Positions 3,586 to 41,846 of a stretch of 64,000 nucleotides of DNA are shown one piece after another. The notes under the pieces were generated by a model, which ran no database searches, was not told the DNA's origin, and saw only the letters and a list, made by a program, of their open reading frames with translations. A program made the position numbers and the translations under genes. This stretch comes from Stegostoma tigrinum (lineage: Eukaryota): the NCBI RefSeq assembly GCF_030684315.1, contig NC_081377.1:21080001-21144000 (forward strand). Reading direction: 5' to 3'. Position 1 is the first letter of the stretch, and each line of letters begins with the position of its first letter.

Positions 3586-4789
3586 TAAAGGCAATTGCCC
3601 CAAAACAGCAAATTTTAAGGCTGAAAACAAGTATTGTTAAAACTTAATGAAGCCACAATACAAGATCTCTAATAGATGCAAGTTATTTAAAAGGCTAATA
3701 ACAACTTTCACTCAAGAAGCTTGCCTGAAGAAACATGCAACCCACATTTCATTTGATTCTACAAGCATCTCCTATATTTGCCATAAAAATATTCTTCCTA
3801 AACTCTAGCAAATTTCAGCTGCAGCAAGTTAGGACAAGCAAAGCATAACCAAATCTTTAAGGTTTGCTGCAGGTAAGGTTTACTTTGCAGCAGCCTAAGC
3901 ATTAACACTATTATGTACACTGCATTGTCTGTTCAGGTTTTACACAAAATTCTCTCTTCAGAGAGATTCAAAATTTGATTCACATTATTGAATCAAAATT
4001 AGTTCACAGGGAACATTTTATTCCAGTAAAAGTATGAAGTCTCCCCTCAAGATATAGTACATTCCTACTGAATGAAGCATACAGAAAAAGAAAACCTCAA
4101 TTGAAAAGTAACTGCAGGATCACACTAAATTCGTGTCTAAAAAAAGTTCCACATCAACTATCAAGTTTTCCAATACTTTAAGAGAATTTTGAGTTTTATT
4201 CATCTCATACGTTTTGCAAGGTTACCAAACAATTCGATCGATTCTCTCGTACAGAGTTAACACTCCTTTACACCATCACCAGCTGCATCTTAAAATGCAT
4301 TAGGAAGATCTACACAAAAAAAAGTCACTGTACAAACAGTTAAACGTCGTCTCAGTCTTCAACTTTCAAACATTATCAAACATCGTTAATTAGCAGAAGA
4401 CCATCATAATCCAAAAGAAAGGCTAGTACCAAAACAAAACCAACCGCTCCTTGTTCCTCACCCAGCCCACAACTCAGGAAGTCAGCAACAACTCCTTCAA
4501 GCGACAACTGAAATCCCGAGAGTATAAGTTATTTACATACCCCCACTTCACACGCACCTTCCTATCGTCATGGAAATCCGGGCCCTATCCCACAAACCCC
4601 TCCCTACTCCCTTACCTGAAAGCGTAAAAAAAATTTCAGAAACCGCAATATAAGCAGATAAAGCAGACAGAACCGAAAACAGCACGACTTGTGCACTACC
4701 ACTCGCGTTAAAGAAACTAAATCTTGAAACAAGAAATGCATCCGCACTAACAGTACCGTATCCTAGCACTCCCCACTCGAGCCACTCAC

Positions 4790-4870
4790 CTGAGATCGGA
4801 CCGCTCCCACTACTCCAAAACCGTCGCCGGAAATACCGCAGGCATCCCATAGCACCCCGCGCCACCCCGG
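4790..4870 (-). other. Probable first exon of an unidentified gene continuing past the left edge (5' end approximate)
   Basis: Strong donor CTCAG|GTGAGT at 4790/4789 inside a CpG-rich island (~4540-4980). Confidence 0.6.
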
Positions 4871-5000
4871 ACCCAATTTCCGCTATCGCCTAATAAGGAA
4901 AAAAAAAGGCCTTTCGGCCGGAGCGATCTGAAGACCGGAGCTGAGTTATCGGAAATGAGAGGAAAAGTCGTCTGAGGAGGGGCTGTATTTACTTCACACG
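4820..5000 (-). promoter_or_regulatory. CpG-rich promoter region
   Basis: Local CpG enrichment in a CpG-depleted background; ETS-like CCGGAAAT and TCGGAAAT motifs. Confidence 0.55.
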
Positions 5001-12238: not shown

Positions 12239-14594
12239 TAACAGGCTAAGTAAACAGAGCTATAATTTAGACCAGGAGGAGACACTGTTGTTGAAACATA
12301 CAAGGGACTTATGAAGAAAAGGACCTGATAGGGTAGACCAATTGACCAATAGAGACAAGGAAGCTAAAATGCAGGACAGTCTCAAGCTAAGGGCCTGATT
12401 ATTTAGGACAGAGGTGAGAACTATGTATTTTTAAAAAGTTACAAAAAAAAAAACAACTTTGGAATGCTCTAGTCTGGAGAGTTGTCAATGTTCTCTTGAA
12501 TATATTCAAAGGCTAGGAGAGGCAGTCTTCAATCAGGGAAATGGGGATTATGTGAGAGAAGTGCAGTTGAATCACATGATCAAATTGCATAGCAGAGTTG
12601 ACTCAAGTTGTATGATTTTGATGAAGTGGAGAAAACCATCCATATACAGAATAAATAAGGGATAATTGCATAATTAGGGGGACAGTTATGGAAAATAAAT
12701 GAAAACACGTTACAGGACTTTGGAAATTGGGTCTCAGGTACAAAGCCAGGTTAATGGAATGTGAAGGCGGTTCTATTGTGCATCTTACTTGTATATTCTG
12801 GAAGGGGTCAGTTGGCTGGACTGGTAGTTTGCAAAGCACAGTGAAGCTAAGTGTGGGTTCAATTTGCAAACTGGTGGGGGTTACCAAAGACCCAGCTTCT
12901 CAAACTCTGCCCTTGCCGGAGATATGGAGAGCCTCAGGTTAAGCCACCACCATACATCCCTCCAATCAGCGCACAGCCTTTCGTACATTGGGACAATGGC
13001 AACTTTACTGTTTACCTTTATAGGTTCTGGAATTTTGGGCACGAGATGTAATTGTCATACTTTGCAGATTTTCATATGTGGGGACCAAGAATCCCCTTGG
13101 CAGTGGGAATAATTAAAAAGCAGGCACACAGATCAAAATCAGAGAGAGGCAGCATGTGTTTACTATTTCCCAGGTATGGTCTCTCAACTCCATCCACTCC
13201 AGAATTCCACCTAAAAAGGCTGGAAATGTGTGAATCCTGGGGAAGGCATTTCATTGAGTGAGGATTAGCTAGGATCAGCTAATTCAGATTGAACTATCAG
13301 AAGAATGCACTTAAAACATACTTGCCAATGAGAGATACAAAAACTTTGTTTTACCTTTGGCATACATATTGCTTGATACAATTGTCAGAGACCTCATTGC
13401 AAAACAGCACAATGACACATAATACAAGGACAAATGTTTGTTTTTTTACCAACTGCCTGTAGGCATTGTTTTCTTGACCTCTTCCATGCAATTCGTTCAA
13501 AAACTGAAAACCAGCTCACTTTCAGATGCAAACAGAAAGCACTGATACAAGTGGTGTTTGCACCACAGCGAGTTCTAAATTTCCCTCATTAGGTGTAAAA
13601 CAAAATTTCTTAATTGTCATGCATTTAAATTAGTAACTAAAGTTCAAACAATAAAAGTATATACATTTTGCACATCCTTCACATCAAATATGAAAATGAC
13701 AATTATTGTTTATAAATAGTCATTTAATTTAATGTTTACAGAGAAAAGGAACACCAGCATTCAAATAGGTTAATTTCTACGATTCATAGTGTAAGTACTT
13801 GCAAGTATGAGTACTCACAATAAACGCTATGAACTGATTACACAATTTCATAAGTTACTTCAGCAGTGTTCCCCCCCGCCCCCACAAGGTACAGGTGGTC
13901 TGAATAGATGCATAGCTGATTCAAGCAAAAAGAATCCCCAAATGTATGACTCCTGTATAGAATCAAAAGTATAAAGTTACATTTATATTAAAAAAAAATC
14001 CTGAGCTGAGCATGGAATTGCAATGCAACAATTCCTTCTCGAAGTCCTGATCTTTATGTAAGCATTTAAGGTTTCCTCAAGTGTTCTAGATTATAGCTAG
14101 ATACAGTAGAAATTATATCTTCCCAGTTGTCAGCAACCAATTCAGTTGAGAGAAGTGTTGAGCTGGCTTTAGCTAACCCTAACCTTGTAGTGGCTGGTCA
14201 GCCTCAATCCATCCCCACTTTCACTCAAGAAATGGGCATCAGTTTAATAATAAATTCACATTTCAAAATACAAAATACTTGCATACTGATTTTCCCTTCA
14301 AGGTGGGAGGGAAAGTTAAAAATCAGAAATACTCAAGCATTAACACCTTCAGGAACCTTGAAAGGAGAAATGGGGAGCAGAAAAAAAATATAATTACTTA
14401 GGAGGTACAATGCCAGAATTTGCATTTTCCTCTATTTTGGTTCATATTTTACTGTAAAATTAAAAAAGGTATTCTTAGTATGAATACAATGGTAGTAGCT
14501 CCAAATGGTATAGTTGACAAACTCAGCGGTCTGAGAATTTCCTTCGAGTCAGCATTCAAGATCGCAGCCTTGTGCCTGCTTTTGTTAATATTGG

Positions 14595-14850
14595 CTATCG
14601 TCTCGGAAGTCCAGCTGTGTGTAATGTCGTTGGCTCATGCTGGCATTGGCTCAAGTTTGGAATTCCAGTCTGAAATGGAAGCTGCATTGTGTAGGCATAG
14701 CCAAGACTGGGGTACTGAGGGGAAGCTGGGTAGTAATGTTCATAGGTAGGATATTGTGTATACAATGCAACATTGGAATCCAGGTACGAGGTGGAGGGCA
14801 GGACCAGGCCAGGTTGAAGGATGGTCTGTGGGATCAGGTATGGTGCAACA
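14595..14850 (-). CDS. RBM24/RBM38-like protein, last coding exon (256 nt incl. TAG)
   Basis: Acceptor ctttttccag|; (G)VAPYLIPQTILQPGLVLPSTSYLDSNVALYTQYPTYEHYYPASPQYPSLGYAYTMQLPFQ...LPRR*, alignable to the P/Y/Q-rich RBM24/38 C-terminus; phase fits the previous exon. Confidence 0.85.
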
Positions 14851-15109
14851 CTGGAAAAAGGTCAGAAAAATTAAGGTTAATCTTTTAGTGCCGATCATCT
14901 TTTTTATGACTTTTGTAAAACACTGATGCTTTGTATTGCTTTACTAGATCCATTTAAGTATGTTGGATCCTTTAATGTTGTTGATGCATGTTAATTTAAA
15001 AAAGGGTTAACTTGTGCACAGCCTGTGGGGATAGTTTCTGGTTGCAGACTCAAAGAAACTACCGAAAACGCCTCTGCAGGACTGTGTATTCAATCTGTAC
15101 GTCCAGTCT

Positions 15110-15280
15110 TCAACAGTATGCTGCATTGTTAAGGGCACTGTCTTTCAAAAATCAGTGATTAAACTGGAGGATCCATATGCCTGAAGATGTGGGCACAAGA
15201 GATTCCATCACACTAATTTAAGAACAAAGGAGTTCTCCTGGAATCCTTGCCAATATTTATCCTTTAAACACCATCAAAAA
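15110..15280 (+). mobile_element. Old SINE fragment with Deu-domain-like sequence
   Basis: tgctgcattgtt...gtcttt...ttaaac...gagttctcc...gccaatatttatcc resembles the DeuSINE central domain (from memory). Confidence 0.45.
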
Positions 15281-17889
15281 AACAAACGTTAGCCAGCTAG
15301 TTTGTTTGAAGACAACTATCTCAAAGGCTCGGCGTGACAGCATTCAGTACTGTCTTGCTTTCAGGAAGTGGATTAAACACATTTGAATTTGCATACAAGG
15401 AACCCAAAGTCCATTTCAGACAGCCTCTGATTTTCTTTACTTCAAAATGCACAACATTCTCTCCAGTCTTCACTATATTGAATGCTACTGTACCCAGTCT
15501 TTGGCCTATAAAAGATGCACAGTGAAGAACAGACCCAAGTATCAGCAGGCAGTTAACATTATACACTAGCACAGTTCTTCCCAACATATTCCTCTGTTCA
15601 AACCAGCATTTGCAGTACAAGTCAAAAAGCAGTAGAAGCTAAGACTTTTTGTGTAGCAAATACCAACCTCAAGAATCAAAACTAGAAGCAAAATTAAGAT
15701 CATACCTCGTTTACCACAGATCAATTGACAAGAACATATAGAAATAAGAAAAGCCAGCTGGATCATCAAAACCATCATATTCTCTTGATAACTGAATGGC
15801 ACATGCCTCCTGTTCTTAAGTCTTAATTCTTCCTCTTTGGAGGACATTAGAATTTTTAAATTCTGATTCAACGTTTTCCTGAGATTCTCAGGAAGACTCC
15901 TGCTAATTCTGCACATTTTCTGCATTCATATAACCAGCTATTCCAGAAATCTAAAGTACATAATCCCAAATACTGCACTGCTTTCTTTGCAACACAAGAC
16001 TTCTGACAGGAAGTAAAAGAACAGTCAGCTAAACACACAAATACGCAAAACATTTGTATTTCTCCTTTTGCCAACACTACAAATGCAGGAAGGAGTAAGA
16101 TTCTTGAGCCAAGGTCAGTTACCAATTGGACTGGTGTCCAATTAATTTGTTTTATCAAATGGGATAATCTTGATTCTTGGGTGTATGTCAGTAGCAATCA
16201 ACTGAGGTCCTGAACTTGTAATCTTTACAATGAATGGCCCAGATTTAAAAGAACAAAATGTTTAGTGGAGAAGCAGCCATTTAGCACCGTACCTCAAAAT
16301 ATTTTGAATAGCCCTGTAAAGGTCTTAAATCAAAGTTGCCTCTACCACACTCAGTATCTTCCAGACTCTACCTAAACACCAAGTGAAAAGGTTTCTGGTC
16401 ATCTTGCATTTGCTTCTCTGAAAAACACTCAAGTGTGTACACTCAGGATTTTGGGAGGGAAAAAAACAATCAGATCTGTTCTCTCCATCAACAAAAAAAA
16501 ACAAACAAGAAACAGAGTCCCCTTCTTTAATTTATCCTCGCTGAAGTTTCCCATCCCTGTAAACCTCTTCTGCAATCTTTCCAATGTTTAGATCCTCTCT
16601 GTAGTATGGCATTTTACTCCAATTGAGAAGTCTTGTAAAAGGTTCAGTATCACCACCTTGCTCTTGTACTCTACGCTTCTACTAAATTAAGCCTAGAAAA
16701 CAGCATGGTTCAATTCTGTCCTAGTCCTGCCACCTTCAGTGACGTGTGCACATCTATGCTCAGGCTTCTGCTCCTCTAGAGACTTAAGAGTAGCACCCTT
16801 TAAAGTCTTTGTTCATTGTACCAAAATACACCAAATATATCTCTAAATTGGAACTTCATCTGCTATCCTTCTGGCCAATACACCAACTTGCAAATGTCTA
16901 GTCAGGAATGAGTACAGCTCCAACAGCACTGAAGATGCTTGACACCATGATAAAAAATGGTCTGCTTGATCAACATTACATCCGAAAAACATTCGTTCCC
17001 TTCTGCCAATGCTCAGTAGCAGTTTGTGCTATCTCCAGACTGCACTGCAGAAATTCACCAAGGCTCCTTAGACAAAATCTTCCAAATCCACACCAACTTC
17101 CATCTAGAATGGCAATTGCAGTAAATACATAGGATATTATCACCTATAAATTATCACCAGCTGAGGGGAATACAGAGTACAGATCAGACTCATCTCAAAA
17201 ATAAAAGCAAAGGGTAGGCAAAGTCCTTCTAAAATTCCTCAGTATCCTGGCAAGGATTTACAACTTGCATTACAGATAGGTGCAAAGCAGGTTAAATCCT
17301 CAAGGCTGAAGGGAGATCCGAGTAAAGAATAGATAAGGTAACAACACTGGCTCCAACCTAGAACATGAATTGATGTTCTGGATTAATTCAACTGTAATTG
17401 GTTCATTGGAAGGACCAAGTCTTACTACCAGCTAGAAGTTAATACCTGATGTTATAACCAAAAGGGTTGGAATGCAGCTAATGAATAATATCTGGCCAAA
17501 CCAGATTTCCTCAATAGACCAAAAGGAACATGCACAGATGACAAGGTCTTTGATTCAAGACAACTGCCCACTTCTGTCCCCTGGCAGTAGAGTTTTTTCA
17601 TTTGGCCTTACTACCTTGGACTTGGGTGTGATTTGCCTAGGTTGCACTCTCTCCTCCAGAATTGTCGTCAAGATGTTGCCCATGCTCGAGTGCAGACATA
17701 CACTTGAAGCATAGAACGCATAGGACTACACTCCATTTGGAGGCACACTTTGGGAGAGATGGGGCGGGGGGAAACAGAAGGACTCACCATCACCATCACA
17801 ATATGCAAGGTTAGACAGCAATTGTTCAAAGTATCACCATGCATGTACAGTTGTGATCTTGGAAAAGACCAAACTCTGAGTTTGATAAC

Positions 17890-18840
17890 TTGCTCGCCCA
17901 CCTGGCTTGTTTTTGTTCAGATGTTTCATCACGATGTTAGGTAACATCATCAGCAAGGCCTCTGATGAAGCAATGTTGTTTTACTCCACTGGGAATTTAT
18001 ACTCACCATCACGAACTGGACAGTAATGTCATTTCCAGTTTTGTTCTGTATATGGGGTCCAATTCTATTGGTTTGTTGATTGCATTATGGGTTGAGAACC
18101 ATGCCTCTAGGAATTCCTGTGCATGTCTACGTTTAGTTACGCTGTCCCAATTAAACTGATTGCCTTAATTTTCCAAGTGTACTAATATGAATGAAAGTTC
18201 ATAGTGTCATTTTGCTGCTAACAAGTGTTTGTGTATTCTGATGGCTATTTTCCTTCCAGTCTTCTACAAATATTACATCAGACAGCCGTTGCACGATATT
18301 TTGTAAACTACAAAAGCTTTGCAAGTTATGGGAACAGTGTCTTTGATCCTTGAGCGTAAGTCGTCGAGTGGCTGTGGACTTGTGTGCTACCGTGGTTCCT
18401 AGTGGTCTTAGGAGTCTTGTTGTCAGTTCTGATATGTTCTTGACGTACGGCAGTGTGGCCAGTGTCTTAGGGTGTACTGCATCCAGCTGTTGTCTGTTTA
18501 GCATGCACTTGTGGATGACTTTGTGGGAATATCCGCTCAGAGAAGATTTTGTACAGATGTTCTTCCTCTTTCGTGCATAGCTCTGGTGTGTTGCAGTGAG
18601 TATTGGCCAGCTTAAATAGTGTCCCAATACAGCTTTGTTTGTGGATGTTGGTGTGGTTGCTGTGGAAGTTGAAGATTTGGTCAGTGCAAGTTGCTTTCCT
18701 GTACACTGAGGTTTGGAACTCACCATTGGTCATATGTTCAATTATGGAGCACAGCACTACTTCATCGGAGGCCTCACTGATGATGTTACCTATAATGGTA
18801 ACGAAACCTCTGCACAAAAACAAGCCAGCTTGGCTAGCAA
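17890..18840 (-). mobile_element. Truncated Penelope (Poseidon-type) element with inverted terminal repeats
   Basis: Frameshifted ORF FQTSVYRKATCTDQIFNFHSNH...TLPYVKNISELTTRLLRPLG; inverted repeats at ~17890-17970 and ~18760-18840, each with a hammerhead motif. Confidence 0.85.
18777..18810 (+). ncRNA. Minimal hammerhead ribozyme motif (family B)
   Basis: CTGATGA-T-GTTACC/TATAAT/GGTAAC-GAAA-CC-TC: perfect 6-bp stem II; stem III CG mutated to CC. Confidence 0.55.
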
Positions 18841-19099
18841 GTCAACAACCACACCCGAGTGACAAACCTTTGCTAAATCTTGAATACCAAATTCTCCCAA
18901 TTTCCATTCAGTTCCCATAAAATGCATGTGTATAGTGTTACAAATGCCCTTTTCCAGTGGACACTAATGCTCAAATCTTTTCAAAATTATGCCAGAATTT
19001 TACAGCAACTAAAGAATCACTTCTCAGGTATCAAACACGGGACCATCAAGATCAAAACTTGAAATAACTCAAGCATACGAAAGGAAACATGCCACTTAC

Positions 19100-19151
19100 C
19101 CGTATGGTCTCTGCATTAGAGGTGAATGCACTTGCTGCAGGGCCAGACCTC
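19100..19151 (-). CDS. RBM24/RBM38-like protein, coding exon 3 (52 nt)
   Basis: atgctag|...|gtaagt; (G)GLALQQVHSPLMQRPY(G), compare RBM24 GFAFGVQQLHPALIQRPFG; phases 1 and 2 fit neighbours. Confidence 0.85.
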
Positions 19152-20853
19152 CTAGCATTTAAGGTGGTGGGGGGGAAAAACAAAAGACAGGGGAAAATCA
19201 GCATTAGAGTAGGTTTAGATTTAAGTAAAATGTAGTAATAAGAACATTTGCAAAATTTGGGCCTTCTTGGGCTGAACTCTCAAAAAGCACAAACTTAAAT
19301 ATCTCAGCTTGGCTTGCATGTCAAAGACTAGAATATAACAGTGCATGGAGATCCAGTCCCCCGATTTAGAAATTGGGAATAAAGTACTGATGCTTTCAGT
19401 GCCATGCTCAAATCATTTGTTAACACTACACTCATACACCCCAATAAAGTTACTTGGTTGAGGTACTGAATTGCTGTAATCACATGAGTAAGATTGATGT
19501 TGTCCCATAAAGATAATGGGGCACGTTTTGCAGAATTCAAGATAATTAAGTTAAACCCAGGTAGAATGCACAATATTACAAGTAGAGCTGGAAGGTCCAA
19601 AGAGGCACAGAACCTCGATTTAAAAGTTGCAAGACAAATGTTACATTAGTATATTTTGTTAGGAAAATTGATACAGCCTCCAGCAACATTCAGACCCCAG
19701 CAACTATCCATATTCTTAATACTCTTGTGCATTGGAGACTTGACCCCACCAGATGTTCCTTCCCATTAGATACTATTACGCAGCATAGTTTGTAAGAATT
19801 AAATGAAACGATTAGTGGATTTGGACAAATTGAAATGTAGATCAAAGCCGAGATTTGAGTGTGTCCTTCTGGCTTGAAATCCAATGCTTTAAATCACTCA
19901 TTTAGTGGTTTAAGAGGATAAATTATAATGAATTCACAGTCACTTTAGCTACTTACTACAGGCTCCTGCACATTGTGGAACAAACAGTAGCACGTGACTA
20001 CAGCATTTGAATGAGAATGGATGGATAATAAAATGTGACTTTGAAAACAAGATAAAATCATTTGGGTTAAATTGATCGCAGCTAGCAAAGATAGACAGAT
20101 ACTGGACATTTTAGAAATTAGTTGGGCAAGGACAAGTCTACAAGTTCTTCTGGAAATTGCTGCAAATTAAAATATCCAAATAGCATTGTTTTTTGCAGGG
20201 ATCTGTATCTATGTCTCCTTTAAGAAACACCACTTTTTGAAACTAAATACTAAAAAAAGTTGTAACAGGAGTATGTATTTCCAGTTTCTTCCAAGATCTT
20301 TTAAGTCTGCTGTCGTCCTCTATATACTCCAACTTTTCTGAACATTTACCTTTACAATAAGCCATCTTAGCAATTCATGATAAGGTGGCAACTGGAATTT
20401 GCTGCACCTCTTCACATCCATCTAGACTTAGTTTCAAGGGTTAGTGGTATGTTATGTATTCTATTTGTTGCACCCTAGTCAGTTTTTAAAACTCTCTGAA
20501 TCGGAGCTCATTCCCAATGGTAATTACTCAAATGGATGACATAGACTTGGACTAGTTACTTCCTTGTAGGATATGAAATCAGTGAGACATTAGGTTACAA
20601 ACGATAATATAACCATGCCAGAGACCAAAGAGAGCTTAATGGGGAATTGCAGCTTATATTTATTCCTCTATTGTAGGAAAAGGTGCTTCATCTAAGTTAT
20701 CGATTAGTTTTTGAAACTAGTAATCAAAATAGAATTTTTTTTTATTACCTCCAGTTTTAAAAAGTTGGCCTAACACAAAGCTGAGATTCAAAACCTAGAA
20801 CAAGTCAAATTCTACATTTTGTTCTTGGGGGAAGCAGGGGTATTGAAACATAC

Positions 20854-20977
20854 CTGAATGTACCATGCGGGGTTTGGCCCCAAGAAAGGCAAGGTTCACA
20901 TTAGTTTTTCTTCCATCAATGATAGGATTAGGATCTTTACATGCCCTATCTGCTGCAACCCAGTCTGCCATGGTGAC
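20854..20977 (-). CDS. RBM24/RBM38-like protein, coding exon 2 (124 nt, RRM C-half)
   Basis: ttacag|...|gtatgt; [41 protein letters not shown](G), close to RBM24/38. Confidence 0.95.
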
Positions 20978-23900
20978 CTGTAATTTAACCCATGCCAAAA
21001 GAAGTTTGTCAACAAAGAAATTCTAAACAGAAACAGGAGTTCACAATTCAGAGATTAACTTTGACAAGACAAAAAACCCAAACTTGCAGCCATTTCTGGT
21101 ACAGGTACTGTAGCCTCAATGCACGTATCTGAAGACTTTGACTTTTATTCACCCCCTCTTCTGGATGCCACACTATTTACCATAATATAATTTACTGTTT
21201 TTTTATATTCCTTGTCTGCTGAATGCAAACACACACTGCACTTTATGATCCAGTCCATTCATGACAGTAATGAATTGGACCTTCACTGAAAATTCTTAAG
21301 GGGCTGAAAGGTTATCAGAGTTAGGCAGGGATATGGGGTAACCAGATCAGTGGAGGAGTAGACCTGAAGACCAGGCAAATCACTTTTGTATATTTATTAA
21401 CGTGCAATTTAGACACAAAAGAATTAGCCCATGCTTGAACCTGAAAAAAGTTAACAGATAATCAAATTAAGGAAGTCCAAAGCCTGGCATGGCCTCATAA
21501 CAGTATGCTGGTCTTGGGACACCATATCCACAAGGATGGATAGAAAAGCAGTAGTATTCTTAAGTTTTGTTATTTGGCTTTTTGATGACCACTATTCATT
21601 GGAGGTATTTCAGGAATGTAATAAAAAGTAGGGATGCATTGCTGCAGTCATACATGGCCATAATCTGAAGTACTGTGTACTACTTCGGTTTGATTTAAGA
21701 ACATAAATGAATTATGAGTTCAGAGAAGGTACACTTGACTGATGCATAGGCTAGAGGAATGAACTTCAGTAAAATTGGTCCAACAGGACCAATATAGGAC
21801 CAGAAGAATATTAAGTGATACTATTTAAACAAAATCTTGAGAGGACTTAGGCAGGTGAATGCTGAGAGGATACTGCCCTCTATGGGAAAGGCTAGAACTA
21901 GCAGATATTTTAAAAATAAGGGGTTGAATAAACTGCAATCCTATTGAATGGCAGAGCATGCTAGATGGGCTGAAAGGGCTTGTTATTGGTTTGTAACTAA
22001 GAGTTCAAAAAGCAGCTGTCATCTAATGCTTCATACAGCGACTACTCACGAGCAAAGATATTTCAAACATACTGCATCCACTGCTGTTGCTGAAAGTATC
22101 AGTTGTTAGATTTTAAAATCTGAGTAGGTAAATTCTTATTTAGTATTAAAGGATAGAGGCCAAAAGCAGTTATATGGAGTTAGGCCACAGATCAGCCATG
22201 ATGCCATTTGAATGGCTTAAGGGCTGAATGGCCTACTTCTGTTTCTATCATCAAACCTGGAGTGTACAATGGGCGATACAAGCTGATGAAATAATTCGTA
22301 CAGTACTTTTAGCATAATAAAAAGTGAAGGTAATACAAAACAAGATGACTGAACCACATTTGAAAATAATAGGGAAGACCAAGGAAGGTTAAGTTCAAAG
22401 TGGTAAATTTCAAAGACTTCCTTAAAAAAAGGAGGAAAGCAAGAAAGGCAGAAAGGTGTAGGGGAAATTTCAGAGCTTAGGGCCTAGCTGACTGAAGGCA
22501 GAGTCACCAAATGGCACGATCTGATGTTCAAGGAGCCAAAATTAGAGGGCAGGTATCAAGAGTCATGGTGCAGGACGAGAGATCGGAGGTGAAAGTCCAT
22601 TGGTGAATTTGGAAATAAGCCCAATGCTTGATCAGAATCCTACACAAGTCAAATGAGTGTAAGTGTGGTAGAGGGAGCAGAACTCAAAGACAGGATACAA
22701 GCCACATAGCACTTGAATTACCTCTAGTTTATAGAAGACATTCAGGAGTGCATTGGAATAATTAAGACTAAAAGTAATAAGGTACAAGCAATGATTTCAG
22801 CAGATAGGCCAAGGCTTTAACCAAGAGGTTAGAGTTAAATTGTGAAAACAGACTGCCTTGGCAAAACTGCAAACATTTGGATGCAAGTTCACAGACTCTG
22901 AACCAGTCTGGGTTTAGTCCTAGACACCTGCCAGAAAAGGATGGTAGCAGTTTGGAATGGGAACTAAAAACAATGGTTTCAGTCCATGCACCATTTAATT
23001 TGAGAAAATTTCTGCCTGTCTATTAAGAAGTCAGATCAACAGTCTGATGATTTGTTGAATCGTAGAATTCAACACAAACACATGCAAGTTGCCCAGGAAT
23101 AAAAGAATGCCTTAATAACACCATAAGGGAGAGATTTGGGTTGATTTTCCCTTCACACAGAAGCACGTTTATGACTGGTTGTAAGCCTTGAGCATGTCTA
23201 ATAGCTCGGATCGAAGATTTTGAGCTCTGACAAACCTAGAAATTTATTAGTACAGAAGCAGGTTTTTAAGCCCATCATGACTATAGCTTTATGCTGATAT
23301 ACCCAGAACCCAAATCTACTCAGTGCTGTCCTGTAACTCTGCACCTCAGCACTTAAATGCTCGTTCAGTAGCACACAATTACATTAAAATCTTAACTGAA
23401 ACGTTGTAAACTCTAAGTTGTTTGAAGATTTTCACAATCCTAGCATGAGATTTTCACAGTGCATTTGTCCAAGAATGCCACATAACTAGCTGCCTGGACA
23501 ATTATCCTTTAAAATTTCAAAGCTCAAAATATGTTTGCTCCTTACTTCCTGTCACTTGATCTGCCCCACTTTTGCAGAAGTGAAGACATTTAAAAAAAGA
23601 GACTGAACCGGGTATCAATTCAAAATAATTTTCAATTCGCAATCCATGGAGCAAATCTGCAGTTGGCTTAAAAAACCCACCAAGGGAAAAGTATTAAAAT
23701 TAATTGATCACAATTTATGGCTGAGATTTGGACTGCAGGAGGAAATAAATGGGCTCAGAAAAATCAGCTGCACTCCAATTTGGATTCAATCTTTTGAAAA
23801 AGAAGAATGTTACCAACAGCATTTTATACTAATTGGAGTAACAGGACCTTGGCAGCAGGTTCATAAGCAATGGTGTATTTGCACTGTAACTCTTAATACC

Positions 23901-26900
23901 CTTGAAGACATGAGGCACAGAATACAAAGTAATAAGTCTGTTCCTCTGTCATTGGTGTATGGTACGAAGGTTTAGACAATGGACAGGCACACTGTATATA
24001 CATTATGGATCAGTGACTCCAGTTCTTAAATTAAAAACAGACTCAAGTAGAAACAACTTCCTTTACCAACCTCAAATAATTAGTATTCCTACTGTTTGAA
24101 AAGATGAAAGACCACCAATTTAAGATGAATGTAAGGAATTTAATGGAGAGATTAAAAAAAACTTATGCAACGTGTAGTTGAATTTTGTCATTCACAGTCA
24201 AACAGTTGTTGAAATAATCCAAAATTCCTTTTATAAACCCAAGGACAGTTAGAAGGTGAATATAAAGCAAAGAATTGCAGGTACTAGAGGTCTGAAACAA
24301 AAACAGAAAATTGGTGTTGAAACACAGAAAATCTGGCATCTGTGGGGAGAAAGAATTAACATGGAGTCCTGTGACTTGACAGTTCTGATGAAGAACCATT
24401 AACTCTTTTCTCCTCTTTGTTCCCCTCCCCCTGCCACACAAGCTAATAAGTATTATGGTAGAACTAAATTGCTCCAAGTCAGAGGTGTCCAGCACAGAAC
24501 CAACCACCAGGTTTTCTAAAAATATTGTCATAGTTACATAGACAAAAATCACTAGGACTCAAAATCACAGTACAGTAATTCTAGAGGATTGTGCAACAAC
24601 TAAGCTTTTGGATCTCTGACTAGCTGTTCTATTTATCTGTGAAGATTGGTCATGAAGTTAAATGACAGATCACCACCTGTGGCAAAACACTATGGTTGCC
24701 AATCAAATATTGCAATGCTGTCTTTCCATAAATAACAGCAATAAAGAGCCACACAATAGTTCAGTTAAAATTGAAGCCCATGGAATTAAAAGGGATCAGT
24801 AGCAATGTGAACGCAGAAATATTATTTCAAAATTTACAGATGGCATGAAACTCAAATGTGCTAGACAACAGAGGATGAACAAATCTCAGGAGGAATTTGG
24901 TGAAATGTGCAAAATACATCAGATGAGATTTGACAGAAGTGTGAAGTGATGCATTGTTAGCAAAAATGCCAAGAGGCACAAACTATCTTTTTAAAAAAAA
25001 ACGTTTATAGGAACAGAGAAACCTTGGAAATCTACATACAAGCTTTTCAACGGGTGGCAGGGCAGATGGAGAAAATGGTTAACAAAAACTACGTAAACCT
25101 TAACTTTTGTTAGTAGATGAGTACAGAGTTTAAAAAAAGTCAGTGAACCTTTATAAAACACTGACTAGCACCAACCTAAATTGTGATATTCAGTTTTAAG
25201 CACCACACTTTGAAATTGGTCATACAGGTAGGTTTAACTAGCAGGTTAAGAGTAAGGGAGGAAGCAATTCCAAAAAAAAACAAACTTACAACCTATGCAG
25301 ATGAAGACTCTACCACAAACAGGGAAAGGATGGGGAATAAAAATCATGGATAAAAAGTGGCAGAAATTTTGGTGGGTAGTTGCACTGGAAGAAATTACAT
25401 AGACAAGGATCGGTGAGGCCACAAAAAGTGATTTGGAAACAAGGATGAGATGAGATTTTAAAAAAAAAGACTAATAGTAGGTTCAGAACAAATGTAGAGG
25501 ACATGGCAGCAGGGTTTAGAATGAGGTCAAATTTACATAAGGTGCATAGTGGAGACCAGCTAAAAGAACATTCCAATAGTCAAATCTAGTTTTAACAGAG
25601 GCACAGGTGGGAAATGTAGTGGAGGTGAAATTTACTTTCTTTGGTTATGGAAAATGATCATGTTCTTTTCATCTTAATTCAGGATTGATTCAAATGCCAA
25701 GGTTGTAAATAGTTTGGCCCAAATTCAGTTGTCAGGTCGAGGGATGGACTAGATTGCTAGGGAACAGCTTTGGCAAAGACGAAAACAATGCTTTAGATCT
25801 TCCAGATATTTAATGGAATGAATTTTTTCCAAATCCAGTACTGAGGTGTGGTCACACATTTTGATAAAATCAGACTGGGGAGGGATTGGGCATTGTGGTG
25901 AATGGAAGACCAAAATGACTGTTAATTTGAAAGAAAGTTTAAATGATGTGGTGGCAGGGAAACACTTTCCAGAAATGAACACAGAAGGAAATGAAGTTTA
26001 GATGAGATGAACAGCAACTATACATCACCTGACATGATAGGTTGTGAATGTCTCAAAACAGGAACCTCTTTACAGGAATAGATCAGCGCTAGCCTGGAAA
26101 CTAAGCTTCTAAGGAGGTACAGTTGTGATATTTCTGTTTCCAGAGAAAAACAAAACCAGTTCCTTACTTGGAACACCCCATTAGTTATTCTGTAACTAAA
26201 TAGTTTAGAAATGGTCTGAATCTGGCCAGATTACTAAAAAAATTGAAGCATTAACATAAACAAATATTAAGAGTTAAAAAAAAATTAGCTCAAGCTTGCA
26301 CCAGACCAGTGGGAACCACTTACAGTTGGGACAAACTGAGCGCTTCCTGGTGATGTTTGTTTTCAAGTCAACTGGCTTTCAAAGCTCAAATTTATTTTCA
26401 TGTTACTAGAAGCATTCCACACAGCAGTGTACATAACACTTGAGCAGGGCTGTACTTGAAATATGTATGAATATGCAAGGTCAGCTTGATTCAAAGCCAA
26501 GACTTGATTTCCCCCCGACAGATGGATATTATAAAACTTCTGTTTCATACAGAAATAACCATTAGTTCAAATTAATGGACAATACTATAACTTAAAGGAT
26601 CAAATGTAGCAATAATAATGTCACAATATGGAAAGAGAAATATTTAAATAAGGGCCAGTAGCTGCACAAGGTGTGCTAGCTATCATATTAAGTAGGCAGG
26701 AACAAAAATCATACATTAAACTTGCCACAAAAGGAATGTCACCGATACATGGGACAATGTTGCACCATAAAATTTCAAGTTAAAGCCAGTAATATTTACA
26801 ATGGATTGTAAATAGTCTTATTCACTTGCATCTCATCCTTGTTTTCCGTTGAGTAATATGGTTGGATCTTCAGTGTTCAGCTGAACTAGCAAACACTAAA

Positions 26901-28270
26901 TATACTAATGAGCATAGCTTTTGAAATGGATATGAATTAGAAGCTTTGCTTCAGCCCTGCACTGCCATTCACGAAGTCTGTGGCAATTCTAGTTATTCTA
27001 CAATCTTGCCACTCCCAATGATCTTTCACCCTTTGCTAACAAGTATTACCTTTAAAAAGAATTCAAATATTCCACGACTTTTAAGAAGAGATTTGCAAAA
27101 ACACTTCACACTGAGGAAGTTTTTCCTTCATCTTTCTTAAATGGTCATTTTTTTTAAGAATTAGAGCAACCCACAGTTCTTTATATTCCCAAAAGAGGTA
27201 AGATCCTTTCTGTATCCTCCTTGTCAAGATCCCCAGGATCTTTTTGAAAAAACCTCTAACAGGTTTGGCAGTATTTTTGGAGAGAAAACAAAAGGGCAAT
27301 GTTTTGAGACTAGTGACTTTTACAGGGCCAGAACAACGACTGCTTTTTAGCCACAAATATTGCCAGACCTTCCAAGGTTCACCAGCAATTTTTGTTTCAT
27401 ATTTCCAGCATCTGCAGTTTTGTTCATTTTTCTCCTTAGGATCTTGTACATTTCAATTACATCATCTATTGCTCTAATTTGAAGCAGATAGAAGGCTACC
27501 CTTTTCACTCTTCCTTGAAAGGGCAGCCTATCCATTCTAGATTCCAGTGAAGTGGACCTTCTCTGAACAGCGTCCAATTTTAACATCCGTCCTTAAGTAA
27601 GGAGACTAAAACTGTGCACAAATTAGGAGCACGTCTAGAGTTGTCAAAACATCCTTCAACCCAAAAAAACTCATTCATGCCAATGTTTAGTAGCTAATCA
27701 AAGTTAACTTAATGGATTCGACAATTCATGATCAGCATTAAGAACTACACAAGGAATTTTCAGACCAAAAAATGTTTTCCAGTACGCTAAGTACACCCGT
27801 TTGCAAATGTAGATGGATTGTTACATCAGGGTTACTGGTTAAATCAGGGATATTGCCGTTATGATTATAGCAAGCCATATGTTATTTGATCTTGCTGCGC
27901 ATTGATTGGTAAAATGGCCAAGACCCACAGTGATGACGGTTACAAGTACTCTACTTCCTTGGTTACTTCATGATGGAGGTTGTTTATTTTATATCTATAC
28001 ATATGTAGGCAAGACTGAGAACATAAAAGCATTTCTAATAAGATTAGCGAATTTGGCCACTGTATCACCCTTGTCACACCTGTGGGTAGTCAGCAATTTC
28101 TTTTAGACAACCGTGGAGTCTGAAGGAGTTTTGACCCAATAACTTGATATTGGGGTTAACTTCGAGTTTAATGCCTCACCAAATAGTTCAACAATTTCTC
28201 TTCGACCCCAAAAACAACGAGAACGCTCCATTTGGTCCTGTTTGGTATGGTAGGTAAGTGAGATACTCAC

Positions 28271-28429
28271 AAAACCATAACCTCGAGATCGTCCGGTCAA
28301 CCTGTCCGTTATCACCGCCGCTTCTTCAATTTCTCCGAATCGCTGAAAATATCGTCTGAGTGATATTTCGTTGCTATGGTAAGGTAACCCACCCACGAAG
28401 AGCTTCCGAAATACTCTGTCCTTATTCAT
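28271..28429 (-). CDS. RBM24/RBM38-like protein, coding exon 1 (159 nt, RRM N-half)
   Basis: [53 protein letters not shown]|gtgagt; RNP2 LFVGGL; RNP1 RGYGF/V split by the family's phase-0 intron; acceptor ttgccag| 2 nt before ATG. Confidence 0.93.
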
Positions 28430-28622
28430 AGCTGGCAATGGCTTGGGGGGGGGGGGGGGGTGGTGTGGTGTGGCAACAAATACAGAAAACATACAATTCT
28501 TACAATAAGGCACTTAAAAAACGAGAAGGGTAGTGATCAGAATTTCGCAGTAACTAAACTCATTAATATCTTGATGAAAAGAATATGAAATAGACACACT
28601 TTGAGAACAAGTGGTTACTCAC

Positions 28623-28720
28623 TGGCCGCTACACGCGTATCTGCTGCGGAATTCACCTCTTTGTCTCACCGCGCACTCGTTGCCTCCGTTGCTTTTGTTT
28701 CTTTGTAATTCACGATGTAT
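28623..28720 (-). other. Probable non-coding first exon of the RBM24/38-like gene (5' end approximate)
   Basis: Donor GCCA|GTGAGT at 28623/28622; CpG-rich; no ATG. Confidence 0.65.
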
Positions 28721-35667: not shown

Positions 35668-35881
35668 TTATAATAATTCTAGTTGACGACATTTGATTTC
35701 TGATAGCTGTCGGTTGGGTGTGCGGGGGAAGCTATCTGTCTTTGATACATATTTCTCAGGTGGAGTAGTCAGCTTTGCTCTAACATCCATGCTATGTTTA
35801 TCAAGGCAGAGCGAATGAGTCTTGAAGCCAATATCTTCTTGTATTCGTGCAAGTTGTTTTTGCAGAGAAGTCAAAGCATCC
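35668..35881 (-). CDS. TEKT2: Tektin-2 last coding exon (214 nt incl. TAA)
   Basis: atttcag|; (Q)DALTSLQKQLARIQEDIGFKTHSLCLDKHSMDVRAKLTTPPEKYV...QLELL*. Confidence 0.93.
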
Positions 35882-38565
35882 CTGAAATACAGGAATCAGA
35901 ATTAAAGCAGCTATAACTCATTCTCACCATTCAAAGACTGTTTTTGTTCTACCTTCAGCAACTTCCGACATTTATCTCAGATAGCTCAGTAATTCTACAC
36001 TTCACTATCGGCTACAATATAACCTCACAATTTTAAGCTTGAAAATATAATTCCTATCTTAGTGGTCACAATGATGAGGCCGTTAGAGTAGGACAATGCA
36101 AAGTGCTGCAGCTATTTGTTTGTTACTACAGTTATGCAACTGTGGGGAGGCACCAAATGAAACCAGGTGCTTCCTCACTAGGAAATAACTGTAACCCAGT
36201 CTGTGCTCTAGCAGCCATTGGTAAAGCAACTGTATAATATTTAAAAAAAAATAGATTAAATCTTTTCTTACTGAGATGGCTCATGTGCTTTTGCGGAAAG
36301 ACCTATATCTTGATAGTCCCTTTACAGAGAAACCAATTTCACTGGAAGAGGAGCCCTTGTAAAAGTAGCTTGTCTCCAGCAAGAGACCATGTAACCAAGC
36401 AGTTAGGCTATGGATAGTAGTAGATGTACACAGGAGTGGTTAAATTCCTATGTGCGCAGTTCCGATTTTCAAACAATTTAATTCTGAACAGGTTGGTTGC
36501 AGCAAACACTTCCTTCAAGCCAAAACGGTTGAAACTATTTGTGCTGACTAACAGGGTTTTAAACTCTAGACAACTGTCTCAAAGAGTGAGTTGGACTTCA
36601 GTGACGATCAGTGAAGACATAGTGAATTACTAGAGGTCAGACTCCAGTGATTAAAAAAAACAATACAGCTAGGAGAATTTGGACCCAAAGTGGTTACATT
36701 TGAGATATTTGCAACACGTGTATTAAAGTGGGAGTCGAGGAGAAAAATTGAAGGGGTGATCTTATGAGAATTCAGCAAAAGCCCAAGAAATGTCAACCTT
36801 ATATGAATCCTGAAACAATGTTCAGATCAACTGGATAATCTTCTGATAGGTATCTGACTTGAGGTTTTTGGGGCGATGAAAAGAATCTGAATTATCTAGT
36901 TCGGTTCAGCATATTAGTAACTGTGTTTATTGTACTTTTAACATCTTTGATGTAGCTGACTATTTAAGATTGTGTTGCTATTAGCATCCATATTCTTAGC
37001 TGTATTGTGCATTAATTTTTTTGTTATTATAAACAGTGGACTGTACAATTTCATTCTTTCAGTAAATATCTGTATCTTTGGATAGAAACCAAACATGGAG
37101 CTAAAACCATAATATCTGGTCATATTTGTAAAATCCGATATAACATTGCAATTAGGTGAATGTCGACCTAAATGACCTACTGCAATAATTAAATGTTCTA
37201 CCTTCAATTGTGTCACTTTAATTTAACAAAAGTAAAAAATTTAGTTTTAATATAAAATAAAATTCATTGCAACAAGTATATGAATTAGGTGCAGGCCACT
37301 TGACCGCTCAAGCCTGCTCCATCATTCAGTAAGATTGCGGTTGGTCTGATTATTCCATACGCCTCCTGCCTAATCATGAGAATGTATCATCCTATCCACT
37401 CCTGCCTTAAAAAGATTCAATGTGCTGAAAATGATGTGTGGACTGGGAGCAAGAAAGGGAACAGTTTGCTTATGTCAAAGCAAGGAATAAGTTCGTTAAA
37501 AAAAAATGACAGCAACCTGCAATACGCCCCAGTAGAAACATACCCCGCAGCAATAAAGCAAGCAGATAGGCTAAACAAGCTCACACAGGACTTCTGACCC
37601 TTCCTGGGAAGAGGTCTTCCCCTGGGAGCTGCTGAACGATTTGATCGGCTGGCAGCTCCAACAGCCCCAAAGTTGTGTACTGAGGGCTACTAGGACTGCA
37701 GACTGGACCACTTAAGAAACCCCTTTGATCTTGGATACAGGGAGTTCTGGGGGCTTTGAGGTGAGGGTTGGGGGCTAGGTTAAAAAGAATATGATGTGAA
37801 GGGGATTGTGCTAACTTCTCGGGGGATGCCACCAGTATCAAAGGGATAGATGTTGCCACCTTCCATTCCACCATTTTAAGAACTTTCAAAAGAAATTGTG
37901 AATTTCACTCCCACCTGACTGCCCGTGCCAACTGTATTATCTTAGAATAATAGAATCACTAGAGTTTGGAGTGTGAACAGCATCCCAGCCAGACCCATCC
38001 CCCTACCCTATCCCCACAACCCGCATTCCCACGGCAAATCCATCTAGCCTGCACATCCCTGGATATTATGGGCTGTTCAGCATTGCCAGTCCACCTAACC
38101 TGCACATCTTTGGACTGTGGGAGGAAAGTGGAGCACTTGGAGAAAAACATGTGTAGACACGGGAGAATGCGCAGACTCCACATAGTCGGTCATCCAAGTT
38201 TGGAATCGAACCCAAACAGGAAAAGTAATGCTGGAATCAATTAAGACAGAGATAGATAGGTTCTTGATTAGTAAGGGGATCAAAGGTTCCAGGGAGAAGG
38301 CAGGGGAATGGGGTTGAGAAACATATTAGCCATTATCCAAAGGTGGAGCAGTTTTGTTGGGCTGAATGGCCTAATTCTGCTCATATATTTTATGATCTTA
38401 TGGTCAATTGTCCTTTTAAGTCATCAACGAGGATATAATATAATTTGACAACCAATAAACTGGTAAGTTTACCATACTAGTATTGGAAAAATGCCATAGA
38501 TATCTGAAACTTGACATCTTTGCCACGTTGACCCTAAAACTAATGGTACTACTGAAGTTGTTTTT

Positions 38566-38671
38566 CAGTTTTTCCGCCATCTTCGCCTCCATGCCTACTT
38601 CTTCAACCGGGAACCTAACCCTCCTTCCACTGACCCCTTCACCCGCTTCCAAAACAAGTCCTCCTCCTGGA
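38566..38671 (+). mobile_element. Penelope ORF N-terminal fragment
   Basis: QFFRHLRLHAYFFNREPNPPSTDPFTRFQNKSSSW resembles the FxRxLRL..FF motif upstream of PLE RT. Confidence 0.6.
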
Positions 38672-38843
38672 TTATCTCTGGTACTACTGAATATTTCCTT
38701 TTTAAGTAAAATTACATGAACCCGACCAATTCCTTTTTGGCATCAGCCTAGTCTTGATTTACCATTAAATAGTACATTGATTTGCATGTAGAAATCAAAT
38801 ATTTGGCATGTAGCAAGTTAATCTGTGAGAAGACAAAACATAC

Positions 38844-38923
38844 TGAGATTGGGCAAGTTTCTGTTTGAGTGCATCGATGGTGCCCTCCAGCTGATGAACC
38901 TCATCCACCAGTCCGTACTGTGC
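38844..38923 (-). CDS. TEKT2: Tektin-2 coding exon 8 (80 nt)
   Basis: ccttcag|...|gtatgt; AQYGLVDEVHQLEGTIDALKQKLAQS(Q). Confidence 0.93.
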
Positions 38924-39239
38924 CTGAAGGGGAGAAATAATTTGTTTCTTAAACGTTGGATGTTATGATAAAGTTATCAATTCACATATCTTTTCATTAA
39001 AATAGCTGTCTCTCAATTCTTCTTACCCATTTCTACCTTGTTTTCATCCCCTGCTTGTTACCAGATTCTGCAGCATATAAAATACCTACACTTATATGCA
39101 ACATAATACAAATAAATAAATATATCAAATATCACAATGGCTAAGTATTGTACTAAAAAATTGTGCAACTGTATTTATATGTAAATTCACACTATTTCCA
39201 TTTAGAACAAAATACATAAATTTATGTTATCTCAAGGAG

Positions 39240-39980
39240 TCAAAACACCAAAGAAAGATTGTGACTTTTCAGTTGTTAGAGACTTGGTCAGACCCCATCT
39301 GGAGAAGTGTGTTCACTTTTGTGCACCAACTACCAAGAAAGATCCACTGGCCTTATTTAGGGAAACAGGGCAGATTCAGCAGAATCGCACTGGCACACAA
39401 AGGGTTAAATTATGAGGTCAGGTTAAAAAATGTTGGCTTTTGCTGTCTGGATTGTTGAAGACTTATGAATTTTTGAATTTGGAGAGGGGGGTGACTAAGT
39501 TTGCAGTTGATGTAGTCTGAGCGAACTTCAATAAACTTTTGACAAGGTGTTGCACGGCAAACTGGTTAAAAAACTAAGAACCCAGAAGATTCAAGGCAAT
39601 TTGGTAAATTAGGTCCAAAATTGGTTTAGTGGCAGGTAGCAGACGGTGACGGTTGATGGGTGTTTCTGCGATTGGACATATGTGTCCAGAGGCATACCAC
39701 TGCATTTGGTGCTAGATCCTTTGCTGTTCGTTATGTATATTAAAGCTCTACACAAGAATGTAGACCATGATCAGAAAGTTCACAGATGACATGAAAATTG
39801 ATGGTGTGGTAAACAGTGAGGAGGAAGACTTAGACTACAGGATCATATAGACAGGTTGGTCAAATGGGCTGAACAGTGGAAAATGGAATTTAATCCTGAA
39901 AAGTGTGAGGTGATGAATTTTGGGATGACTAGTAAGACAAGGGAGCACTCAGTAAAACCCTAAGAAGCAGAGGGACCTCA
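39240..39980 (+). mobile_element. Decayed CR1 LINE RT fragments
   Basis: LVRPHLEKCVHF, KTFDKVLHGKLVKK, FTDDMKI and WAEQWKMEFNPEKCEVM-like motifs. Confidence 0.75.
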
Positions 39981-40777
39981 TCACTTTACATGACATCCTT
40001 GTTAAACACCATGTGGGGAAATATTTGGGGACCATACGATTTGGTTTTACTTTGGTGCCTCCATAATCAAGACAGTCTGCTGAGACATATAAATACGTAA
40101 AGAAAAGGAATTGTGGGCACTGTTGAAACCACAGTTTAATGTATTTAGGAAAGGGGAAAACTGGTATTGAAAAATCAAAATCAACAAGACTGAGGACTGC
40201 AAGGAGTAAATTTTTTCTACAAAACTAACCATTTAGCACTTGGCCAAGCCTTTTGAAAAGAGTGCGGTGTGTAGATATACCAGGAAATGGGATGAGAACT
40301 CTCAATCTCCAGAAGGTAACTCAATTATTTCCACATTTTTCTCCCATTGCATTCAATGAAAGCATTAAGATTGTCCAGATGCAGTAAAATGTTCCCCATC
40401 ATTATTCGAACAGGATGCTCAAGATAGAATACCTCAATAACCTTTAAAGTTTTTGAGAAGATTTGTAGCTTGGGTTGTGAATGAGGTTATAGATTTGCTT
40501 GCCGAGCCAGTGTGTTTGATTGCAGACATTTCATCATCCTGCTTGGTAACATTGCCAGTGAGCCTCCAGTGAAGCGTTGGTGTTCTGATGCCTTGTTTCG
40601 CTGGGATGGGTGACATCACTTCCATTTCTGTTTTTCAGTTGTTTGTACATCAGGCCAATGTAATGTTTCTCACAGTCCTTGTCTGAACAGGAGCACTTAT
40701 ACAGTGTTTTTAAAAGGAATGGATACCGCCCATAGGTGCTAGCGAGTTTTGAGAAGATTTGTAGCTCAGGTTGAGGT

Positions 40778-41069
40778 TCTGGATGTGAGTTTGCTCGCTG
40801 AGCTGGAAGGTTAGTTTTCAGACGTTTCGTCACCATTCTAGGTAACATCATCAGTGAGCCTCCGACGAAGCGCTGGTGTTATGTCCCGCTTTCTATTTAT
40901 CTGATTAGGTTTCCTTGACATCACCAACCCAAGGAAACCTAACCAGATAAATAGAAAGCCGGACATAACACCAGCGCTTCGTCGGAGGCTCACTGATGAT
41001 GTTACCTAGAATGGTGACAAAACGTCTGAAAACTAACCTTCCAGCTCAGCGAGCAAACTCACATCCAGA
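40778..41069. repeat. 292-bp palindrome (140-bp arms, 12-nt spacer, about 3 mismatches) made of a younger Penelope pLTR
   Basis: 40778-40917 is the reverse complement of 40930-41069. Confidence 0.92.
40821..40854 (-). ncRNA. Minimal hammerhead ribozyme motif (family B), intact
   Basis: tca-CTGATGA-T-GTTACC/TAGAAT/GGTGAC-GAAA-CG-TC-tga: 3-bp stem I, 6-bp stem II, full core. Confidence 0.7.
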
Positions 41070-41846
41070 GGAATGGATATCCAAAAAGCATAATTCGCCA
41101 TTATCTCCACCACAGAACACAAGATGACAAGACATGGCCAGGCACACTAGTCACCCTACCGTACATCAGAGACATATCAGAGATGACCACAGGACTATTC
41201 AGATCCCTAGGTATCAGGGTAGCCCACAAACCAACATCCGCCCTGCGACAGCTACTGGTGAACATAAAGGATCCCATACCCACAACCAATAAAACTAACG
41301 TGACCGAAAAAATACCACACAAGGACTGAGAGGAACATTACATTGGCAAAACTGGAAGATAACTGACAGTAAGGGGACATGTACACCAACTAGCCACCAA
41401 GAGACAAGACCAATTCTCACTGGTCACAATACACATGGACAAAGAATGACACAAATTCAACTGGGATAACATATCCATAACAGCACAAGCCAAGCAGAGA
41501 CATGCCAGGGAATTCCTGGAGCCATGGCATTCCAACTGGAACCCTATCATCGTACACATTGAAATGGACCTGATATACAAACCACTGAAAATCGGAACCA
41601 GAAATGATGCCAACCACCCCAGCAAAATAAGGCATATAAATAACAAGTAGGACAGAACACCAACACTTCACTGGAGGTGCACCGATGATGTTACCTAGCA
41701 GGATGACAAAATGTCTGCAATCAAACACACTGGCTCAGCACACAAATCTGGAGCCGCATTAATCTCTTAAATCTTTGCAATCTGTAAATTCTTATTAAGC
41801 TAGATGAGCTGGAATACTAAGTAACATAATAAGCCTTTATTCTTAC

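Follow-up and report, generated by a model that had tools for sequence, protein, structure and literature searches.

Does the vertebrate RBM24/RBM38 family of RNA-binding proteins have a third member? The question is raised by a 64,000-nt stretch of the Stegostoma tigrinum genome (NCBI RefSeq assembly GCF_030684315.1, contig NC_081377.1, positions 21,080,001 to 21,144,000 of the forward strand; hereafter the window, whose own numbering is used for its features), for which a preliminary description proposed an intact, faster-evolving paralog next to TEKT2, retained here and lost in mammals. RBM24 and RBM38 govern RNA processing in muscle, heart, sensory organs, and red cells, as well as the translation of p53, and are treated as a pair in those parts of the reviews that were covered. 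Overall, we put at roughly 85% the probability that the window holds an intact, spliced third gene that is likely an ohnolog (a duplicate left by whole-genome duplication) from the early vertebrate rounds (1R, the first, and 2R, the second), was apparently lost in bony vertebrates, and is predicted to encode a regulator of GU-rich RNA with a single RNA recognition motif (RRM) and changed partner contacts.

Six peptide motifs of the protein (including RVFRKLF, DWVAADRA, and RKTNVNLAF) were located on the minus strand, at 28417, 28375, 28327, 28303, 20965, and 20911. The four coding exons of 159, 124, 52, and 256 nt, also on that strand, sum to 591 nt, i.e., 196 amino acids and a stop. All coding introns have GT donors and AG acceptors, and their phases (0/1/2) are the same in the genome's RBM38 (168/124/55/292 nt) and RBM24 (168/124/55/340 nt). 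All 196 residues match RefSeq model P0129 ("RNA-binding protein 38-like [Stegostoma tigrinum]"), and Pfam PF00076 is assigned to the protein in the precomputed columns; exons, phases, and database model thus agree with the in-phase exons, canonical splice sites, and RBM24/38 layout originally described. The parts of the gene are listed from its 5' end (UTR, untranslated region).

28623..28709, minus strand: non-coding first exon (5' UTR), start approximate; joint 28441/28623 with GT-AG ends in two of four runs, with 86 and 60 letters on the short side.
28271..28441, minus strand: coding exon 1; ATG at 28429, 159 coding nt (28429-28271); RNP2, helix 1, strand 2, and most of RNP1.
20854..20977, minus strand: coding exon 2, 124 nt; helix 2, strand 4, and the C-terminal extension of the RRM.
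19100..19151, minus strand: coding exon 3, 52 nt; its counterpart has 55 nt in RBM24 and RBM38.
14595..14850, minus strand: coding exon 4, 256 nt to the TAG; Pro/Tyr/Gln-rich tail, predicted to be disordered, with degenerate eIF4E-binding and terminal motifs.
13722..14594, minus strand: 3' UTR of about 870 nt; contigs end at 13735 and 13722, which does not fix the true end; ATTAAA at 14248, 13733, and 13728.

All three coding joints were found in contigs of each of four public runs from three studies. These runs are of a kind that is not on record or is guessed to be RNA, name no tissue, and have contig depths that cannot rank expression; they are taken as showing splicing because joints that lack the intron and coincide with GT-AG ends are the product expected of spliced RNA. 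A 181-nt intron in the 5' UTR (28442-28622) was present in two of the four. The third gene is real and spliced, as its first description required. An upstream frame beginning near 28780 (28429-28780, minus strand) spans the 5' exon; in the spliced form it terminates at a TGA that overlaps the main ATG. In a whale-shark isoform model, this frame is read as an in-frame extension of the N-terminus. Isoforms in the databases with an extended N-terminus were left out, as their extensions vary between species.

Coding exon 2 matches the genome at exactly three places: the window (on C28), C23 at 59.46 Mb, and C2 at 34.09 Mb. Exon 1 returns the same three loci at E <1e-17, its next matches being other RRM families at no more than 49%, and neither search showed a fourth family copy in the genome. 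The C23 and C2 genes are both intact and equal RefSeq models P0535 and P0523, respectively. In the tree, the C23 gene groups with RBM38, and SPO11 lies 156 kb away; the C2 gene groups with RBM24 and precedes CAP2 on the same strand. By locus, therefore, the third gene is the ortholog of neither, as the SPO11-side and the CAP2-side loci each hold a separate canonical gene. A third paralog on a paralogous segment had been proposed, and both canonical genes were found where that proposal expected them. The third protein is 57% identical to RBM38 and 55% to RBM24, versus 75% between those two. The human genes are at 6p22 (RBM24), 20q13 (RBM38), and 1p34.3 (TEKT2).

It is synteny that carries the ohnolog claim, and the strongest evidence is the tandem of an RBM gene and then a CAP gene on both C2 and C28, the only two places where the genome has a CAP gene. 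On C2, CAP2 comes after RBM24 on the same strand (CpG islands at 33.990 and 33.999 Mb, first CAP coding exon at 33,949,221), across a gap that was not screened for other genes. On C28, a CpG island and a CAP gene follow the third gene about 9 kb on, again on the same strand. This CAP gene is nearer to mammalian CAP1 than the C2 gene is in all three exon pairs (80.1 vs 73.8, 54.8 vs 33.1, and 57.7 vs 46.1 bits), a one-sided comparison in that no CAP2 structure was among the matches listed. Two neighboring features fall within the window.

4501..5000, minus strand: CpG island, the putative CAP1 promoter; the first CAP1 coding exon lies 4.3 kb left of the window (G000:C28:21075662).
35668..56257, minus strand: TEKT2, the upstream neighbor, from its first and last coding exons, with internal exons partly mapped; the first exon matches Tektin-2 chains at E 1e-14, bearing out the neighbor first named.

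Upstream on C28 are TEKT2 and three AGO genes, and C28 also carries a TFAP2 gene 0.62 Mb and a BMP5-8-type gene 0.39 Mb from the third gene, the AGO, TFAP2, and BMP genes all falling within 0.65 Mb. On C23, a TFAP2 gene is 0.46 Mb and a BMP gene 1.3 Mb from RBM38, and RPEL (PHACTR-type) genes occur on C2 and C28, 8.4 and 6.9 Mb off. Paralogs of CAP, TFAP2, BMP, and RPEL genes are thus distributed over C28 versus C2/C5, C23, and C4; the names TFAP2A/B/C/E, BMP5-8, and PHACTR are those that we take to apply to these loci. Over 241 columns of TFAP2 exons, seven sites pair C5 with C23 and C4 with C28, and the alternative pairings have two and none; C4+C28 has support of 89/84. The gene order in skate is the same as in S. 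tigrinum: promoters on Leri_26C are placed at 17.65 (Ppt1-2), 17.71 (Cap1), 17.72 ("Rbm38-2"), 17.87 (Ago3), and 17.95 Mb (Ago1), and "Rbm38-1" is on Leri_21C (PMC10115646), where Rbm38-2 is equated with the third gene by position and not by sequence. The chromosome table of the same source assigns LER21 (= chicken 20) to 1-beta and LER26 possibly to KJ 2-beta (PMC10115646). Using the 1R/2R model (PMC7269912) for the pairing, the TFAP2 result and the skate table together therefore make RBM24 and RBM38 probably 2R sisters and the third gene a product of the other 1R branch, an assignment that we consider reasonably likely. That the third gene is an ohnolog of some kind is very probable.

Several other loci were noticed among these gene families. 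Beyond the three AGO genes on C28, one is at C5:112.26 Mb, with a further Piwi-domain match at C5:89.91 Mb, and at G000:C6:47185446-47244068 Piwi-domain exons are doubled in opposite orientations with equal scores. Two equal-scoring, inverted matches to the TGF-beta family lie 11 kb apart at G000:C14:77219067-77231048 (a recent inverted duplication or an assembly artifact), and a single weak TF_AP-2 match (G000:C10:57172138-57172440) was seen beyond the five multi-exon TFAP2 loci. At G000:C15:35917665-35946708, two identical-scoring intronless two-RRM frames of 325-331 amino acids lie 29 kb apart and are possibly tandem retrocopies of the hnRNP type.

Orthologs of the third gene are annotated in 20 chondrichthyan species, including a chimaera, under inconsistent names ("RBM38-like" in some sharks and "RBM24-like" in others), its identifiers being XP_038656233.1 in catshark and LE28106 in skate; the full-length orthologs are 80-100% identical, and the RRM of the chimaera (Callorhinchus) is identical at 85 of 90 positions. 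With a profile of 16 orthologs, six chondrichthyan clusters scored 286-440 bits, and no other match exceeded 235 bits (best 120 of 1762). A library of 1.84 billion proteins held one representative of the third-gene type, its clustering at 50% being such that relatives may be hidden inside one cluster, and a protein atlas held only generic RBM38/RRM clusters. When 406 family RRM rows were scored at the 18 diagnostic positions (rows with fewer than 45 aligned residues or below 62% identity being omitted), 24 rows, all chondrichthyan, had 15-18 of the residues, and the other 382 had four or fewer.

No third-type protein was present among the listed matches from bony vertebrates, in a search that covered annotated proteins and no bony genome, with lists of the best 120-150 matches; "lost in mammals" was therefore too narrow a description, and the pattern suggests a loss in bony vertebrates as a whole. 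Absence from every bony vertebrate is, we think, a fairly good bet. The converse, a true ohnolog surviving in canonical-looking or unannotated form in, e.g., gar, bichir, sturgeon, coelacanth, or lungfish, is unlikely, although the restriction to annotated proteins and the clustering of the library would both favor its being overlooked, and if the gene's rapid change postdated the split of bony from cartilaginous fishes, a bony ortholog would be without the diagnostic residues. Gar, bowfin, bichir, and lungfish each have an RBM24 and an RBM38, with no third type among the matches listed, and all nine additional divergent or "-like" sequences that were tested fell inside RBM24 or RBM38. One of them, Scleropages P0085, has three of the 18 diagnostic residues and was placed among teleost RBM24 sequences. 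P0268, P0295, and P0085 are long-branch teleost duplicates of RBM38 or RBM24 (pipefish rbm38-like, arowana rbm24-like), and P0085 converges on the three third-gene residues. One sequence labeled Lampetra planeri (P0239) was rejected as a cyclostome member; it nests in teleost RBM38 (99/97) and is probably a contaminant of that assembly.

Trees under LG+G4 on 24 and 34 rows did not decide the branching at the base. The third-gene sequences group together with 100% support within the vertebrates (vertebrate clade support 95/95 to 99), on a stem of 0.67-0.91 changes per site; in a 55-row quick tree, the paths leading to the chondrichthyan crowns of RBM38 and RBM24 are about four to six times shorter. 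Between shark and skate, identity is 88% for the third gene, 83% for RBM38, and 95% for RBM24. Judged from these sequences, the gene appears to have passed through a burst of change on its stem and then come under renewed constraint at about the rate of RBM38, so "faster-evolving" is apt for the stem and not for living elasmobranchs. The long branch and degenerate C-terminal motifs might of course be those of a decaying relic under relaxed selection, but the open frame, the identity retained from chimaera to sharks, and splicing in all four runs effectively refute that reading. In addition, all three listed exon 1 differences in related species are synonymous; in two of four runs compared with exon 1, the contigs gave no match.

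What the protein may do is best approached through its RRM, for which the closest solved structures by sequence are RBM38 (E 5e-44) and SUP-12 (2e-39), the next family following at 3e-28. A structural model from a deeper alignment has 58 residues at pLDDT (predicted local confidence) of at least 90, exceeding 90 over most of the domain, with a disordered tail, and the best fold matches to the modeled RRM were nucleic-acid complexes of SUP-12 and RBM38. RNP2, RNP1, and the family's strand-4/C-terminal extension are intact, and F11, Y17, R49, Y51, F53, R76, K77, N79, N81, A83, G86, and K88 are unchanged in all 10 distinct orthologous RRMs. Seven replacements (T5R, T8R, T19S, D21E, V38A, K47R, and A78T) affect residues that at least 166 of 170 other distinct RRMs of the family share; six are fixed in 10/10 orthologous RRMs, and T19S is present in 9/10. 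R59W, Q44L, and two more basic helix 1 residues are likewise fixed in the third gene, and the pI of the domain is ~10, up from 9.2. The claim that the RRM differs where both paralogs normally agree therefore holds at the seven near-invariant sites, but not throughout the motifs first singled out: in DWVAADRA only W59 is peculiar, V60 being shared with the genome's RBM38, and F84 of RKTNVNLAF is Y in 7/10 distinct orthologous RRMs.

By a list of positions that we take, from RRM geometry among other things, to be RNA-facing or SUP-12 contacts, 17 of 18 are unchanged, the exception being V38A in strand 2. RBM38 and SUP-12 bind GU-rich RNA (PMC3820963), and the third RRM likely still does so. The replaced near-invariant residues, the raised pI, and a replaced terminal motif would also suit a neofunctionalized factor, i.e., one recognizing a new RNA motif or competing at RBM24/RBM38 sites without their effector contacts. 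We hold this only tentatively, as nearly all presumed contact positions are conserved and the gene moves with its paralogs in skate fin. There, in the pectoral fin, it is expressed with a base mean of 654 and is higher anteriorly (log2 change -2.2), with the same sign for Rbm24 (-6.6), Rbm38-1 (-1.9), and Myod1 (-8.3) and the opposite sign for Cap1 (+2.7) and Tekt2 (+1.7) (PMC10115646). About half of the 6,900 listed fin genes share the sign of the third gene, and the fin data therefore show independent regulation more than muscle specificity.

The tail has changed further. RBM24 and RBM38 bind eIF4E via an octamer whose serine is a GSK3 site (PMC7463526); in RBM38 the octamer is YPYAASPA, marked by Tyr3, Ser6, and two prolines that are both needed (PMC9095979). 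In S. tigrinum it aligns to HYYPASPQ, and Pro2 is absent from all nine aligned orthologs, the alignment of this low-complexity region being approximate; by the same approximate alignment, the Ser-Pro is kept in 5/5 sharks and absent in 3/3 batoids and the chimaera. The extreme C-terminus is of the TAG-L/F-Q/P-RR type in place of the paralogs' P/T-D-R-M/L/I-Q (also D/E-R-M/L-Q). The eIF4E switch has, on balance, probably been lost or weakened. The expected product is a regulator of the splicing or stability of GU-rich RNA in differentiating tissue, with a tuned affinity and without a reliable eIF4E switch.

Several points weigh against the history favored here. The tree that had been proposed as a test recovered the clade and left its placement undecided: the best tree puts the third clade outside RBM24+RBM38 with support of 23/9, and all five alternative placements survive approximately unbiased (AU) tests (p 0.12-0.46), among them a clade nested with the RBM38 (p 0.22) or RBM24 (p 0.20) of chondrichthyans. 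The BMP exon quartet gives a tie (2:2:0 over 85 columns), the TFAP2 gene that we label A and the BMP gene that we label 6 are on C5 and not on the C2 of RBM24, and the RPEL search had no C23 match among the matches listed. The data contained no cyclostome sequence and no bony-vertebrate genome, and the assumed list of RNA-facing positions belongs among these points as well.

The unrejected nestings, and the fact that the gene has been seen only in cartilaginous fishes, would be accommodated by a duplicate of RBM24 or RBM38 that arose in chondrichthyans, was relocated together with its introns, and diverged fast. However, even an absurd placement is not rejected by the AU test (p 0.12), which therefore has little power here. 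Such a duplicate must, moreover, have landed right in front of the one other CAP gene, in the orientation of RBM24 and CAP2, which we estimate at about one in tens of thousands of gene slots, and a joint segmental copy of RBM24 and CAP2 is unlikely because the neighbor looks like CAP1 in all three exon pairs. We therefore regard a chondrichthyan-specific duplication as highly improbable.

Under the preferred reading, that of an ohnolog from the other 1R branch, an ancestral tandem of an RBM and a CAP gene would have been doubled, the "1" branch giving RBM24 (with CAP2) and RBM38, and the "2" branch giving the third gene (with CAP1) on a beta segment, with a fourth copy not surviving here. The third gene would then have changed quickly and been held again before the split of chimaeras and elasmobranchs. 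Its RRM beta-sheet may bind single-stranded GU-rich RNA in introns or 3' UTRs, its more basic rim and smaller strand-2 residue (V38A) may tune affinity or specificity, and its low-complexity tail may recruit splicing or stability factors, the eIF4E/GSK3 switch having probably been dropped. A bolder version, in which the gene of the other 1R branch was lost in all bony vertebrates, had its RRM rewired in the burst, lost the eIF4E switch, and acquired targets of its own or became an antagonist of RBM24/RBM38 in a tissue program of cartilaginous fishes, is doubtful as a whole; were the rewiring true, the gene would be a natural variant for reading RRM specificity.

A third vertebrate member alters the history of the family, corrects the RBM38-like and RBM24-like annotations in sharks, and implies that RBM and CAP genes were likely paired before the vertebrate duplications. 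As a stable natural variant at sites that hardly vary from nematodes to mammals, the RRM makes questions of residue and specificity testable. No account of a third RBM24/38 paralog was found in the literature, of which subscription journals were mostly outside the coverage; the main text of a catshark atlas contains no rbm24 or rbm38, and whale-shark supplements (12 of 24) and hagfish supplements (all but one file) contain no match to the gene. The surprise is capped in that ohnologs kept only by cartilaginous fishes are already a known class of event, and the gene models are already in databases under misleading names.

Within that class, 19 cases of ohnologs kept in chondrichthyans and lost in bony fishes are recorded, with wnt6b and cspg5 named among those retained (PMC10115646), and nanos1A/1B is a comparable case (PMC5932020). 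The third gene resembles the former set in its differential retention, its inferred position on a beta segment, and its faster early rate, but the RBM24/38 family is not named in the portion of that text covered (PMC10115646). C. elegans SUP-12 is the top fold match and a close one by sequence (E ~2e-39), but at the diagnostic sites changed in the third gene, it and other single members from invertebrates have the canonical residues. RBM38 (RNPC1, Seb4R) shares the single N-terminal RRM (70/89 identical to the genome's copy), four coding exons in the same phases, a Pro/Tyr/Gln-rich tail, and a similar rate of change among elasmobranchs, whereas the third gene is on another chromosome and is 57% identical overall and 38% in the tail. 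RBM24 (Seb4) likewise shares the RRM (68/89 identical) and exon plan, and it too immediately precedes a CAP gene on the same strand; unlike RBM24, to which it is 55% identical overall, the third gene is without poly-Ala tracts, neighbors CAP1 and not CAP2, and is far less conserved among elasmobranchs (84-96% vs 95-100%). From both paralogs, it differs at 18 positions of the RRM.

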